This document shows positions 35,768-59,900 of a stretch of DNA of 64,000 nt, piece by piece. Under the pieces are notes generated by a model. The model was not told the DNA's origin. It worked only from the letters and a program-made list of their open reading frames with translations, and made no database searches. The DNA is from an uncultured cyanobacterium (lineage in GTDB: Bacteria > Cyanobacteriota > Cyanobacteriia > Cyanobacteriales > Cyanobacteriaceae): the NCBI GenBank assembly GCA_963710605.1, contig CAVQBA010000007.1, positions 256,001-320,000 on the forward strand, read 5' to 3'. Positions within the stretch are counted from its first letter, which is position 1, and every line of letters begins with the position of its first letter. Both the position numbers and the translations under genes were made by a program.

Positions 35768-36796
35768 ATGACCACTACGCCAACTAACAAAAACAACACA
35801 TCTGTTAGCTTGCCCCCAGAAGACGCTAAGGCAAGAGTAAGCCAATTTATGCAAGGTGTCCAAGATGAAATTTGTGCAGGGTTAGAAAAACTAGACGGTA
35901 AAGGTAAATTTCAAGAAGAAAGTTGGCAAAGAGAAGAAGGTGGTGGTGGTCGATCGCGCGTGATGACGAATGGTGATATATTCGAGCAAGGTGGAGTTAA
36001 TTTCTCTGAAGTTTGGGGAGACAATCTACCTCCTAGTATTTTAAAACAACGCCCTGAAGCTCAAGGACATTCTTTTTACGCTACAGGGACATCGATGGTA
36101 TTACACCCAAAAAATCCTTATATTCCTACTGTACACCTCAATTATCGTTATTTTGAAGCAGGTCCGGTTTGGTGGTTTGGTGGTGGCATTGATTTGACTC
36201 CTTATTATCCTTTTGCTGAAGATGCCCGTCATTTTCATCAGACTTTAAAACAAGCTTGTGATAATCATCATCCAGAATATTATCCTGTCTTTAAACGTTG
36301 GTGTGATGAATATTTTTATTTAAAACATCGTGACGAAACTAGAGGAGTTGGTGGCATTTTCTTTGATTACCAAGATGGTACTGATCCACTATATCGGGGA
36401 CCTCATGCAGAAAAAGCGGCGGCTGAATATAGCAATAATTTACCACCTTTAGAAAACCGTAGTTGGGAAAATCTTTTTGCTTTTGTGAATGAATGTGGTA
36501 AGTCTTTTCTACCTGCTTATGTACCTATTGCTCAAAAACGTCGAAATACTGAATATGGAGATAAAGAACGTAATTTTCAGCTTTATCGTCGTGGGCGTTA
36601 TGTCGAGTTTAATTTGGTGTACGATCGAGGTACTATCTTTGGACTACAAACTAATGGACGTACTGAGTCAATTTTGATGTCTCTACCACCTTTAGTTCGC
36701 TGGGAATACAACTACAAACCTGAACCTAATACCCCTGAGGCTGAGCTTTACGATGTGTTCTTAAAACCACAAAATTGGGCAGAATATGGTGAGTAA
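35768..36796 (+). CDS. hemF: Oxygen-dependent coproporphyrinogen III oxidase
   Basis: [43 protein letters not shown]. Confidence 0.97.
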
Positions 36797-36912: not shown

Positions 36913-36958
36913 TTTTTCTTGCCTTTTAAGACAAGTATGGTCATAATATAATTAAGTT

Positions 36959-37132
36959 AACTACTACGTTGGTGACTGCCAATTAAGTTTTTTGATCTAT
37001 AAGCTTAATTTTTGGAAATTGATAGGTCTTCGTGGCAGTAAACCGAGCATGTACTCGGAAACAGAAACGAAAATCATTGATCTCCCCCTGGTCAAACCAG
37101 GTCATAAACTGAGGTAAAACGGCGTAGCGGTT
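36959..37132 (+). ncRNA. ssaA: 6S RNA (SsaA)
   Basis: Closing stem AACTACTACGTT/GGCGTAGCGGTT; internal GGTGACTGCC, CGTGGCAGTAAACCGAGCATGTACTCGG, CCTGGTCAAACCAGG typical of cyanobacterial 6S; TTGCCT/TATAAT-like promoter upstream. Confidence 0.85.
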
Positions 37133-37250
37133 GCTTATTTATTAATTGATTATGGCATCTTCTGTCAGTGCTAAACCCCGAATGATATAATTTAGACACT
37201 GTTAATTATATAATTACGTTAATCTTAGAAAATAAAAATAAAAAATAATT

Positions 37251-37340
37251 ATGGATATTCTGACTTTAGGTTGGGCTGGTGTACTTGCTTTATTTACATG
37301 GTCAATTGCAATGGTAGTTTGGGGGCGTAAAACTTTTTAA
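37251..37340 (+). CDS. petN: Cytochrome b6f subunit VIII
   Basis: [29 protein letters not shown] (29 aa). Confidence 0.93.
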
Positions 37341-37343
37341 ATC

Positions 37344-37481
37344 GTGGAATCATTTGGTGTTTTTAATGTCTTATTTTTAGTCGCTGTAGTTTTATTGGTT
37401 GCAGTTAGCGGTGGTATTCTCTATTTAACCACGATCGAATGGCGCGATCGTCGTCGTCAAGATCGTGATAAACGTTTATAA
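37344..37481 (+). CDS. Small single-TM protein (45 aa) downstream of petN
   Basis: GTG start; ...VAVSGGILYLTTIEWRDRRRQDRDKRL*; the YLT..EWRDRRR motif recalls a conserved cyanobacterial small protein. Confidence 0.75.
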   Translation: MESFGVFNVLFLVAVVLLVAVSGGILYLTTIEWRDRRRQDRDKRL

Positions 37482-37583
37482 TTTTTAGCTGATATTTTTG
37501 ATAAGCAATAAAACCACAGCGGATAATTGATTGATGATTAATTATTTAACTCGAAGATTAATCAAATATGTTATCTTAGGATT

Positions 37584-37789
37584 GTACCGCAGGGAGTGCG
37601 GGAATTTACGCCTATAGAGATGAACGTAGTTTTTTGTAATTGAGACATATTCACTAAACTTGTTCAGATCAGATAAAAAAAATGTCTGAGCTTAGGAAAT
37701 GATTCGTCAGTGGTCGATCGTACTTCACAAAAATCGAATAAACTTAAACCACTAGAGACAATGGGCTTTTTGCTCATTGTTTTTGTTTT
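37584..37789 (+). ncRNA. Candidate structured ncRNA with TnpB omega-RNA-like 5' end
   Basis: Extended -10 TGtTATCTT (37569-37577); starts GTACCGCAGGGAGTGCGGGAATTTACGCCTATAGAGATG; several hairpins; intrinsic terminator 37755-37789; no ORF in the track. Confidence 0.6.
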
Positions 37790-37873
37790 ATCCTCACGAA
37801 TTATGGCAAAATTTGTTAAGTTTGTAAAAATAGAGTATTAACTTTTGATTTGGGCACAATTTTAATTTGATTT

Positions 37874-39301
37874 ATGGCAGTCAGTGACTTGAAAAAAGAA
37901 AATAATCCTTTACCTTGGATTTTCGGGACGATGATAGGTGGTGTAATTCTCGTAGCTGGAATTACTTATGTAACCATGGGACGCTCGAATAACCCTGAGA
38001 GCGTAGCTGAATATACGGTTAATATTACTCGACAAAACGTTAATTTACAAATTCAAGCTAGTGGTACAGTAGAACCAATTCAAAGTGTTAATATCAGCCC
38101 CAAAAATCCCGGTATCCTTCAACGATTATTAGTTGATCAAGGTGTTATCTTGAAAAAAGGACAACTGTTAGCCGTAATGGAAAATGAAGAGTTATTTGCC
38201 GCAGGTGCGCAAGCTGAAGCTAGATTAAAAGAAGCACAAGCATCTTTACAAGAAACAGATATTAAAATACAAGGTGATATTCAAAAATTATCAGCTCAAC
38301 TGGTTCAAGCAAATGCTCGTTTAGAAGAAGCTAATCGTCGTATTCCTCAACAAATTGCTCAAGCCCGATCGCAATTAAAAGAAAAAAAATCCCGTTTAAT
38401 ACTGGCTGAAACACAATTCAGACGTAATGAGATGTTACTCAAAGAAGGAGCAATAAGTCAAGATCAATTAGATCAACTAGAAAATCAATATTTCGTTGCT
38501 CAAGCTGATATTCAAGAGACATTACAAAGATTAGAAGAGCTTAAAACTACTCAAAATCCTGAAATAGAAAGATTACAAGCCGCCGCAAGAGAAATACAAA
38601 TTGCGATCGAAGAAAGACGTTTAACTGGTAAATCAGAACTAGAACGGCTGAAAGCTAATGCTCAGGCGATTCAAGCGAACTTAGAAATAGCAAAAATACA
38701 ATATGAAGATACCTTTATCACCGCTCCTTTTGATGGAATTGTGACACAAAGATTCGCTACAGAAGGGGCATTTGTAACGCCGACGACTTCTGCTTCTAGT
38801 ACGGCATCGGCTACTTCTAGCTCGATTATTGCTTTAGCTAGGGGTTTGGAAATTATTGCTAAAGTACCTGAAATTGATTTAAGTCAAATTGCGATCGGGC
38901 AACCCGTAGAGATTGTGGCTGATGCTTATCCTGACCAAGTTTTTGAAGGAGTAGTTAAATCGATCGCCCCAGAAGCAATTGTAGAGCAGAATGTGACTTC
39001 TTTTGAGGTGAAGGTGGATATGATTACAGGGCAAGAACAATTATTATCGAAAATGAATGTCGAGATGAATTTCTTGGGTAAACAATTAGAAAATATTTTG
39101 GTAGTGCCAACAGTTGCTATTGTCACCGAAGAAGGTAAAACAGGGGTGATGATTCCTGATGAAAATAATGAGCCTGAATTTAAGCCAGTGACGATCGGTA
39201 TTTCGGTTGATAATCAAACCCAAATTCTTAGTGGTGTTTCTTCAGGTGAGGAAGTATTCATTGATTTACCACCAGAAAGAAAAGGGTTTTTAGGTAATTA
39301 A
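37874..39301 (+). CDS. Efflux RND/ABC periplasmic adaptor (HlyD/MacA-like)
   Basis: N-terminal TM, ASGTVEP, long coiled coil, ITAPFDGIV, VPTVAI. Confidence 0.9.
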   Translation: MAVSDLKKENNPLPWIFGTMIGGVILVAGITYVTMGRSNNPESVAEYTVNITRQNVNLQIQASGTVEPIQSVNISPKNPGILQRLLVDQGVILKKGQLLAVMENEELFAAGAQAEARLKEAQASLQETDIKIQGDIQKLSAQLVQANARLEEANRRIPQQIAQARSQLKEKKSRLILAETQFRRNEMLLKEGAISQDQLDQLENQYFVAQADIQETLQRLEELKTTQNPEIERLQAAAREIQIAIEERRLTGKSELERLKANAQAIQANLEIAKIQYEDTFITAPFDGIVTQRFATEGAFVTPTTSASSTASATSSSIIALARGLEIIAKVPEIDLSQIAIGQPVEIVADAYPDQVFEGVVKSIAPEAIVEQNVTSFEVKVDMITGQEQLLSKMNVEMNFLGKQLENILVVPTVAIVTEEGKTGVMIPDENNEPEFKPVTIGISVDNQTQILSGVSSGEEVFIDLPPERKGFLGN

Positions 39302-56941: not shown

Positions 56942-59900
56942 ATGACGAATCAACAACCCCCCACAGAAGAAAATAATCAGCAATCTAGAGGTTTGGCAAA
57001 AGTTTGGCAATTTGTTAAGCAACCTCGTACCCAAATTATCACCATAATCAGTTTGGCAGGTATTTTGATTGGGGGCTATTTCGGTGGTAAGTTTTTACTC
57101 GCAACTGTAGTTTTAAATCGGATTGAAGAGCAATTAGAAGTCGCTTTAGAAAGAGAGATAGATATTGAAAATACAGAAATAGACAGTTTATATCGAATTA
57201 CCTTTGAAGATGTTATTCTACGCCCTACTGATGAAGACAATAGCACCTTGAGGATAAAAGAGCTTAAAGTAACGCCAGATATTATTGGTTTATTTACTAG
57301 AAGACAGTTATATTTAGATATTGTCGCCTCCGATGTGAAAGGTTATGCTCAATTAGATACAATCATTCAAGAAAGTGATGATGAGAAACCTACTCCAGAA
57401 ACATTACTACTCAATCCTTTACCAATTACCACAGAGTTGAATGTACGTTTAGAAGATACACAAATAGCTGTTACGCCAAATATTGAATCTAATTTACTTT
57501 TCATCGATACTATTGGTGAGATAAATTTTTTATATGACAAAGAAGTACAACCAATTACATATCAACTTACCAATAGGATTGGTACGAGTGGTGTAATTGA
57601 TATAGAAGGAGAAACTTTATTAAGTACGACTCAAAGTCGAAACGAGATTAAAATTGATGCTTTAAATCTGCCACAATTAACGGCGGTTATTCCCCAGTTG
57701 CCTGTATCTCTTGAGCAAGGAATTGTTAGTGGTAAAGTTGATATTAATGTACCTGCATTTAAAGAAGCGAAAAATACTACCTTAGATGGTTATCTTTTTG
57801 TTGATAATGTAATTGGTAGAGTTAATCCTGAGAAAGTTAATTTAGGAGATAATGCTTCTATAATACCGTTATTGCAAAAAGACATTTTAGCTAATGCCGC
57901 TATCGATTTTAATGGACAATCAATCACTCTTACAGAAGCTAAGTTGAATTGGGGATATATTAACGCAGAAGCTGAAGGAATAGTTGATTTAGCTAAAGGA
58001 TATAATTTACAAGCTAATTTAGATTCTTTTAATCTGGGTGTAATTTTCGCTAACACAAAAACACAAAAGCCACCTGTTGAGCTTGGTGGTTTGCTTTCTA
58101 GTAATATTACGATAACAGGAGAAATAGATAATCCTTTAATTAGTGGTAATCTTGATGTCGAAAATACCTTAGTTGATAAAGTAGAGTTAGGTACGATAAA
58201 TAGTCAATTTAGTGCTAATCTCGATCGAGTAGAAATACAAAGAGTTATTGTTAAACCAAAATTTGGTGGCGAAATTACTAGCCAAGCATCAATCGAAACT
58301 AATCTTAGAGATACTGTCTTAGCAGGAAAACCTTTTGTACCAGAAAACACCCAAATTAATTTAAAATTTTTAGCTAACTTACCACCAAATCAAGTTATCG
58401 AAGCTTACGCTGATTCGACTTATGGTTTTGATTTTAATAACTTTTTAGCCGTTGGTGAAGTTAAAGGCACATTATCAAATCCTGAAGGCTTGATTAGTTT
58501 TTCTTTACCTGATATTGATACAGATAATTTTGAGACAGTTAAAGCAGATGGTAAAATTGTTCTTAATCAGCAAAGAATAGAAATAAAAGATACGAAATTA
58601 GTGGCTGATAACGATCGAATTACTGTTGATGGTGTTACTAACTTAAATACCAAAAAATGGCAGATTAATGTCGAAGGAAAAGACTTTTACTTGACTCCTT
58701 TTATCTCTCAATTTTGTAATAACAATTTAAGTTGTGCGGCTTCTGCTTTTAATAGTGAGTTAGCTATCAATCTTAATAGTTTGGATAGTCGTTTTCAAGG
58801 TAATCTTAATTCAATTGCTTTGAATGACATTGATGGTAATGCTGATGTTAATCTGCAAATAGATGACGGAGATTTGGACTTAGAAGCAATATTAGTTAAT
58901 GGTCAATTATTTATTGATGGTAATTTAGACAATATAGCTTTGAATAAAGTAGTCAAAACTATTCCAACTAATAGTAATGTTAACGTCGTCAATACCAATT
59001 TTAAAGCTTCAACTAATGTAGATGACTTATTAACTGCTACTAAAACTAATAATATTCCTCGTACTTTAACTGTGCGAGCAAATAGTAATATTAAAGTGAA
59101 TGACGGTAATGTTAATGTTGATGCAATTGTCAATGACGGTAATTTACTTGTTGATGGTAATGCTAATAATATTGCGGTTAATAAAGTTATCCCTTCAATC
59201 CCGGCTGGTGTTAATGTCGTTAGCACCAAATTTAATGCTAGTGCTAATGTTAATGAATTATTAGCTGTTAATACTAACCCTGATAATATTCCTCAAAGCC
59301 TCAGTTTACAAGCAGATACTAATATCAAAGTCAATGACGGTAATGTTGATGTTGATGCAGTTGTGGTTAATGGCAATTTAGTAGTTGAAGGAAATGCGAA
59401 TAATATTGCGGTTAATAAAATTGTCCCTGCGATTGGTACTGATGTCAATATCGTACAAACTAGATTTAATGCCAATGCTAAAGTAAACGAGTTATTGACT
59501 ATCGGTAAAACGAAAAATCTTCCTCCTAGTCTGAGTGTTAATGCTAAGACTCAAGTAAATGTTGATGATGGTAGATTAAATGTTGATGCGGTAGTCGCCA
59601 ATGGTAATGTAGCGGTGAATGGTAATGGCAGAAATATATCTTTGAATAAAGTTGTGCCGACAATTCCCACAAAAGTAGATGTTGTTAATACTGATTTTAA
59701 TGTCACCGCAGATGTTAATGAGTTATTGGCAGTTAATAGTAATACCCAGAATCTTCCTCCTAGTGTGAAGTTAAAAGCAAATACTAAACTCAATGTGGAA
59801 AATACAGGGGTAGTTGATGCAGTAGCTAATATAGATAACCGTCAAGTTAATGTAGTCGCAAAAGCCAATAATATTCCTCTCAATCAAATTAATCCTAATA

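Follow-up and report, generated by a model that had tools for sequence, protein, structure and literature searches.

What is the segment that lies between petN and an HlyD-family gene in this cyanobacterial genome, and does its presumed RNA serve the host? The window analysed here is the whole stretch of 64,000 nt at G000:C7:256001-320000, where G000 denotes this genome (3.93 Mb, 7 contigs, 84.9% complete). A preliminary description had read plus-strand positions 37584-37789 as an orphan TnpB omega-RNA-like RNA with its own promoter and terminator, and had proposed a domesticated guide RNA that regulates host genes with a TnpB-derived protein encoded elsewhere. All the motifs that it named are found in the sequence at the positions given for them. 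The gene neighbourhood is as follows:

35768-36796, plus strand: hemF
36955-37137, plus strand: 6S RNA (Rfam, 93.8 bits)
37251-37340, plus strand: petN (Pfam PetN)
37344-37481, plus strand: ORF45, a conserved ORF of 45 aa that begins 4 nt past petN
37874-39301, plus strand: HlyD-family gene
next after the HlyD-family gene, opposite strand: PAS-GGDEF-EAL gene

The Rfam and Pfam matches bear out the 6S RNA and petN that had been named as neighbours. ORF45 is hydrophobic towards its N terminus and R/D-rich in its tail, matches no Pfam family above cut-off, and may be an unannotated small membrane protein that is co-transcribed with petN; a petN-ORF45 query found matches in 17 of 20 family genomes. 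At 14 of the 16 family loci read (G000 included), petN-ORF45 is followed across a short spacer by the HlyD-like gene, and among these loci the element is present in the spacer only in G000 and in G001, a sister species of the same genus. The HlyD-like gene does not adjoin ORF45 in G012 (L050) and G007 (L051), and an ORF starting MTKSQKFTPQKS.. downstream of ORF45 in G012 possibly belongs to a mobile element. Upstream of the HlyD-like gene, TTTGTTAAGTTTGTAAAA at 37812-37829 is a candidate promoter or operator; a TTTGTTAAC-TTGTA-like sequence comparable with it precedes the orthologous gene in several family genera, and 37812-37829 likely has such a role independently of the orphan element. The ORFs overlapping 37584-37789 are short (27-43 aa), and a small-protein reading of the 37-aa minus-strand ORF at 37664-37777 was rejected, as gaps of 1 nt and 2 nt against G001 leave its frame not conserved. 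No tnpB was found in the 64-kb window; the reported absence of tnpB and tnpA beside the segment held up, the nearest PF07282 match being ~139 kb off and tblastn with 21 TnpB queries giving nothing upstream.

The link to TnpB comes from homologous loci elsewhere in the order. The 26-nt motif at the 5' side of the segment occurs with up to 3 mismatches at 15 places in 11 of 401 genomes, against 0 for the reversed pattern among the matches listed. Four of these places (L061, L066, L071 and L074) have a full-length tnpB ORF (320-398 aa) that enters or crosses the motif, and tnpB fragments are found at three (L072, L073 and L075); at the remaining eight, the window included, no ORF of at least 80 aa reads into it. 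The motif bases are read as T-A-G-H-A-G-T-Y-A and T-A-G-S-A-E-I in L072 and L061, and in another frame (IPQEVRK.. / VPQGMRE..) in L066, L071 and L074, so that the nucleotide pattern which the preliminary description had given for tnpB 3' ends is real and exists in both frames. The use of two reading frames across TnpB clades argues for conservation at the RNA level. On metagenome contig L128, a 27-mer identical to that of the window stands right after a tnpB stop codon. At L128:560-870, a hairpin that matches the window's first helix, P1, at every base directly adjoins the tnpB 3' end (..DRDINAAKNILNRALSI*), and a short scaffold ending GGAACTTCAA comes next; P1 is thus also in use with scaffolds of other right-end types. 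A metagenome scan with a pattern specific to the 3' part of the window scaffold gave no match, and a second scan pattern gave one contig, which is tnpB-linked.

The tnpB-linked copies also locate the end of the former element. Two independent IS copies, L066 and L071, taken from two genomes, are 82.6% alike over 1325 nt (positions 293 to 1613), and their likeness stops exactly after TACTTCAC. The window scaffold, ending ..GTACTTCAC, closes with the same motif at 37728, while tnpB elements of a related clade resident in G000 end in GGTAGTTCAC, with near-identical pairs diverging right after GTAGTTCAC. From these boundaries it follows that 37728 was the right end of a transposon and that the position of an omega-RNA guide starts at 37729. 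The scaffold and its parts are:

37584-37728, plus strand: omega-RNA-type scaffold (R1 score, A1 and A2 covariation, IS boundary)
37587-37591 / 37597-37601, plus strand: helix P1, CCGCA/TGCGG, a family helix
37611-37617 with 37691-37696, plus strand: long-range helix P2, a family-wide pairing
37620-37690, plus strand: lineage-specific middle part, longer and in place of P3 and P4
37662-37668 / 37685-37691, plus strand: hairpin GTTCAGA/TCTGAGC, read from the sequence
37699-37704 with 37716-37721, plus strand: right-end hairpin P5, a family-wide pairing
37709-37714 / 37748-37753, plus strand: hairpin AGTGGT/ACCACT, which involves the variable guide and is not conserved
37722-37728, plus strand: scaffold end ACTTCAC

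The structure was assessed with a covariance model of the scaffold, R1, of length 118. The window copy, which is among the eight training sequences, reaches 88.6 bits with R1 and covers all of its positions (1-118). For the alignment of eight scaffolds (A1), RNAalifold gives 5 helices with 27 pairs, 17 of which have compensatory changes. In A2, an alignment of 34 homologues that was fitted to R1, thereby favouring structure, and that includes the window and seven other training sequences, 96.0% of pair cells are paired versus 65.8% in shuffles; changes on both sides are present in 25 of 27 pairs, the observed values were reached by 0 of 500 shuffles, and slid controls gave 30-46% paired. P1, P2 and P5 are fully paired in the window copy, where P5 is built from other bases than in its closest homologue, that of G016 (another genus of the same family). 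All three internal hairpins described previously could be located, but CCGCA/TGCGG alone belongs to the family helices. For 37584-37789, the plus-strand fold has an energy of -51.8 kcal/mol (z = -2.74; equalled by 2 of 200 shuffles), and the minus strand gives z = -2.06. Rfam contains IS605-orfB motifs; its gathering score was reached in the window only by the 6S RNA, nothing credible appeared at 37400-37900 at E <= 10, and the four homologous loci searched gave nothing at E <= 0.1 except a terminator-like match. The covariance-model match, whose absence had been set beforehand as a refutation, was thus obtained with R1, built from homologues, while Rfam itself was null. A further R1 match in the window, at 57248-57332 (10.9 bits, E = 1.3), was taken as chance. 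Judged from sequence, the omega-RNA reading of 37584-37728 is strongly supported by homology, covariation and the right-end boundary; the proposed TnpB omega-RNA-like identity holds on these grounds, with the reservation that the scaffold is neither encoded in nor overlapping a tnpB gene of the same element.

The scaffold is flanked by a promoter-like element and a terminator, together with a trace of what may be the other end of the element:

37535-37564, plus strand: AT-rich inverted repeat TGATTAAT / ATTAATCA, with TTTAAC in the loop (37545-37550)
37569-37577, plus strand: extended -10-like TGtTATCTT (hexamer TATCTT at 37572-37577; predicted start G37584)
37729-37752, plus strand: guide-equivalent host DNA AAAAATCGAATAAACTTAAACCAC (24 nt), as follows from the right-end boundary
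37753-37785, continuing to 37789, plus strand: intrinsic terminator, a stem of 14 pairs plus a T-run (terminator scan; kept in G001)

GTACCGCAGG begins at 37584. A generic sigma-70 scan called 5 sites versus 5.9 expected and none at 37572, where the putative promoter is without a good -35; the sole support for the candidate -10 is its constant position, 6-9 nt before the first hairpin, in stand-alone and tnpB-linked homologues (judged by eye). Because the tnpB-linked copies carry it at the same place, the window's -10 appears to be inherited from the IS, and 37572-37577 is predicted to be the internal omega-RNA promoter of that IS. At the 3' side, the terminator scan found 1 site versus 0.6 expected from shuffles, and no other terminator-like site between ORF45 (ending at 37481) and 37753. 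Before the IS arrived, this terminator was most likely that of the petN-ORF45 operon, since it is common to G001, whose scaffold is truncated at the 5' side. The claimed dedicated promoter and terminator therefore appear not to be dedicated to a host RNA: the promoter position is that of the IS and the terminator is most likely that of the petN operon. The left end is far less clear. In two resident IS pairs, likeness at the left boundary begins with TTTAAC, whose chance of occurring in ~100 AT-rich bases is ~0.07 by a rough hand estimate; the inverted repeat around TTTAAC in the window may be a remnant of the left-end junction or chance, a suggestive and weak sign. No left-end likeness was found upstream of the stand-alone copies when compared with four left ends, a weak test as these left ends differ mutually.

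Copy number and relatives place the element in time. BLAST of 241 nt around it against G000 returned only the self-match, the next best having E = 0.13, and a MITE relic with many degraded copies, the refuting case considered earlier, is excluded, the element being single-copy in G000 by BLAST and R1. Among 19 other family genomes, real matches were found only in G016 and G001; besides one in G023, short BLAST hits (E <= 0.01) arose in G008, G013, G015, G017 and G019, and those of these five genomes are T-rich or coding and were dismissed as chance. The G016 copy is at another locus, downstream of a PadR gene, and shares with the window a first 46 nt that are 91% identical as well as the blocks CTGAGCTTAGGAAATG, TTCGTCA and TACTTCAC; petN-region DNA is 77-79% identical between the two genera. 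G001 has the same synteny as G000 and is ~80% identical from GTACTTCAC through the terminator (~80 nt to the terminator) and the HlyD promoter region, the guide-equivalent segment being likewise ~80% conserved at the same site. The G001 alignment starts only at about the last 70 nt of the scaffold, where it is poor, and R1 finds nothing in G001 at E <= 10. The shared site implies an insertion older than the divergence of the two species, with loss of the 5' 105 nt in one lineage. Outside the family scaffold, the window sequence is shared only with G001 among the homologues. The expected conservation in relatives is accordingly mixed: homologues exist in the order, in G016 and at the G001 site, but the G001 copy is 5'-truncated and decayed.

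How common are such tnpB-less scaffolds? R1 matches at E <= 1e-4 were obtained in 32 of 151 genomes of the order. Taking the best locus per genome (30 loci), a TnpB coding sequence ends at the R1 match in 10, as judged by tblastn with 21 diverse TnpB queries; the other 20 are without upstream TnpB coding and, as one lies at a contig edge, 19 of 29 assessable loci are orphans. Five of the 20 orphan loci fall into two groups with common upstream sequence, and these may be parts of elements not yet recognised. Thirteen loci, including that of the window, have unrelated upstream sequence together with a -10-like element 6-9 nt before P1 (by eye). In genus g7, a stand-alone RNA of the same family was found by R1 in six of the six genomes searched (L085, L088, L089, L091, L092 and L096), at 1501-1607 of each oriented locus and at 3-110 in L096. 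The five loci clear of a contig edge have a TTG(C/T)C(A/G)-17-TATAAT promoter and the scaffold end GGCACTCCAC, followed by ~12-18 partly conserved nt and then a terminator. Scaffold identity averages 95.7% (93.5-98.1; 10 pairs, 5 genomes) versus 56-60% in the flanks, the orphan is syntenic in four of five genomes, and neighbour proteins are 73-90% identical in 9 of 12 flank comparisons and 42-69% in the other three. Going by this difference in sequence conservation, orphans of the scaffold family can apparently be under selection. Guide targets of the g7 RNA were near control counts, with one conserved near-match inside a conserved transporter gene, and a 23-nt word of the RNA had no match in a literature text search.

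G000 has 22 PF07282 (TnpB TNB) matches over cut-off and 7 strong Y1 TnpA genes; on C7, where the element lies at 293584, PF07282 matches are at 83882, 113977, 154407 and 509771. Eight resident TnpBs are 39-45% identical to the TnpB of L066, the bearer of the closest scaffold, and none above 45% was found. For six of the eight (C1:149611, C4:979643, C4:1352183, C6:302900, C7:115068 and C7:155474), the RNAs end GTAGTTCAC versus GTACTTCAC in the orphan; those of the other two (C2:47978 and C4:1129515) end in GTCAA. Besides the window copy, R1 has just two matches in G000 at E <= 1; both are weak (24.7 and 24.6 bits, E ~0.06) and full-length, and each coincides precisely with the 3' end of a resident tnpB gene. 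Resident tnpB tails were also considered as copies of the element and rejected, having no resemblance in protein motif or DNA. The RuvC residues D, E and D, compared in aligned columns, are kept in all 17 resident TnpB ORFs examined, the other five PF07282 matches being duplicates (three) or truncated (two), in an assembly 84.9% complete; the stand-alone tnpB with a mutated D-E-D triad that the preliminary description had suggested looking for was not among these 17. More generally, G000 is rich in IS200/IS605 elements, e.g. C6:302900-304141, C7:113827-115068, C4:979643-980730 and C7:154380-155474, with right-end types ..GTAGTTCAC, ..GAGTGTCAA and ..GTATGTCAC. Two near-identical resident IS pairs have (A)TTTAAC in common where their left junctions lie, and this sequence is accordingly a candidate TAM.

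Homology, RNA structure, the right-end boundary, the single copy and an ancestry shared with the truncated G001 copy are established here. We think it probable, though far from certain, that the segment represents the guide-RNA part of an IS of the IS200/IS605-type, tnpB-only (IS1341-like) kind, and that it persists as an immobilised, decaying remnant without host function. The IS would have inserted, in the common ancestor of G000 and G001, between the small ORF downstream of petN and the terminator of that operon, and would later have lost its tnpB gene and left end, leaving the internal promoter, the full scaffold and the adjoining host DNA. Since the insertion lies ahead of the petN operon terminator, an RNA started at the internal promoter would now end at that terminator, and an RNA of ~170-205 nt is probably still made. 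Most likely the remnant is immobilised and slowly decaying and has no function for the host. If active, the RNA would load into one of eight resident TnpBs with an intact RuvC, six of which have RNAs ending in near-identical GTAGTTCAC, and its only target would be its own insertion site in the empty form, no longer present in G000. Several observations sit uneasily with a relic: P1, P2 and P5 pair, leaving the scaffold structurally whole where a neutral relic might show broken helices; P5 has been rebuilt with bases different from those of G016; over the 5' 46 nt, a stand-alone copy at another locus in another genus has 91% identity; stand-alone copies preceded by a -10-like element occur often, with no upstream TnpB coding at 19 of 29 assessable loci; and conservation of the g7 orphan greatly exceeds that of the DNA around it. 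As the assembly is 84.9% complete, its missing part could also hold a cognate tnpB or a target.

These same observations feed the competing explanations. A functional stand-alone omega-RNA acting in trans with resident nuclease-active TnpBs, and kept selfishly by cutting of the empty site or through an extra target, would account for the intact scaffold in a genome with 22 PF07282 matches, 7 strong Y1 TnpA genes and eight TnpBs 39-45% identical to the L066 type, six of them with RNAs ending GTAGTTCAC versus GTACTTCAC; trans action of stand-alone omega-RNAs is moreover stated in passages of two published papers (PMC10691335; PMC10055086). We nevertheless regard it as unlikely: identity to the cognate type did not exceed 45% in any TnpB found, R1 links the orphan to resident RNAs only weakly (24.7 bits), the scaffold is lost in G001, and the left end is not recognisable, so that the element has probably lost the ability to excise and no empty site is formed. 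A TnpB-independent RNA, i.e. a structured 3' UTR of the petN-ORF45 transcript or a base-pairing sRNA of IS-end origin, would fit the better-than-shuffled fold of the segment and the lack of any terminator-like site from the end of ORF45 (37481) to 37753, which makes read-through from petN likely; its chances are slim, however, as the conserved parts are exactly the omega-RNA helices and the sequence beyond the family scaffold is common only to G001.

The host regulator of the preliminary description, a domesticated guide RNA working with a TnpB-derived and possibly nuclease-dead protein encoded elsewhere, as in TldR systems, has in its favour a single-copy element among core genes with a promoter-like element and a terminator, and same-family orphans conserved as single-copy genes in another genus. 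It nonetheless fares worst and is very improbable. Guide targets in G000 numbered 303 versus a shuffled-guide mean of 311 for 16 nt with at most 3 mismatches, and 86 versus 84 with shuffled guides for 20 nt with at most 4; the best match of the 24-nt guide (20/24) falls inside a 473-aa ORF, so that the suggested matching of the variable segment to host promoters found no target above shuffled guides. No RuvC-dead TnpB was seen among 17 ORFs, D-E-D being intact in 17 of 17; the -10 is explained by inheritance from the IS and the terminator, shared with G001, by the insertion site; and the scaffold is not conserved in G001. A broader possibility, which we consider doubtful at present, is that the window RNA is a living member of an undescribed Cyanobacteriales class of immobilised, promoter-bearing, single-copy orphan omega-RNA genes that are kept by the host, with the g7 orphan as the example. 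If this were true, such RNAs would be trans guides for resident TnpBs or TnpB-independent sRNAs, and cyanobacterial sRNAs whose mechanism is obscure may include domesticated transposon guide RNAs.

Under the remnant reading, what had been an orphan ncRNA gains an annotation as a transposon remnant, and its promoter, structure and terminator are explained without a new regulator. R1 also shows that tnpB-less omega-RNA modules are common in the order, and at least one genus keeps one under strong constraint. The recruitment of transposon guide RNAs as host RNAs without an adjoining nuclease gene thus becomes directly testable. A literature search of limited coverage returned nothing on cyanobacterial orphan omega-RNA genes that are conserved and immobilised. 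Regarding catalogued sRNAs, a passage of a NAR 2026 paper indicates that its authors used their own model for the Synechocystis sRNA PmgR1/Ncr0700 and took Rfam-annotated sRNAs as the known set.

Among known systems, the closest are the TnpB omega-RNAs (reRNAs) of IS200/IS605 tnpB-only (IS1341-like) elements, which have a homologous scaffold whose 5' hairpin overlaps tnpB 3' ends, end at the transposon right end and take flanking DNA as guide; an internal promoter position is plausible as well, given that the Synechocystis RNA Ncr0560 starts within a tnpB gene according to part of a Grad-seq preprint. Unlike them, the window copy is without an upstream tnpB, the preceding host ORF being only ~100 nt from the scaffold, and its middle part (37620-37690) is lineage-specific. 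The guide RNAs of TldRs (nuclease-dead, TnpB-like repressors), which a passage of PMC13622181 describes as adjoining RuvC-mutated tldR and having guides that match host promoters, are likewise omega-RNA-derived and set in a non-mobile host context, but neither a RuvC-mutated partner nor a promoter-matching guide was found for the window element. Palindrome-associated transposable elements (PATEs), reported in a passage of Meers et al. (2023; PMC10055086) to encode omega-RNAs, resemble it as protein-less IS200/IS605 derivatives whose omega-RNA needs TnpB in trans; a PATE, however, has both ends and is usually repeated, whereas the window element has a clear right end and one copy, and so lacks the two ends and multiple copies of a mobilised element. 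Stand-alone omega-RNAs are stated to act in trans and to be 'evidently mobilized' in a passage of a PNAS 2023 paper (PMC10691335, citing Altae-Tran 2021). Like these, the window element has no adjoining effector or transposase and has effector-bearing loci elsewhere in the genome; it differs in being single-copy, in having no recognisable left end and in having a decayed orthologue in G001. As stand-alone omega-RNAs have already been described, the window element adds another of them, most likely one that is an immobilised IS remnant.
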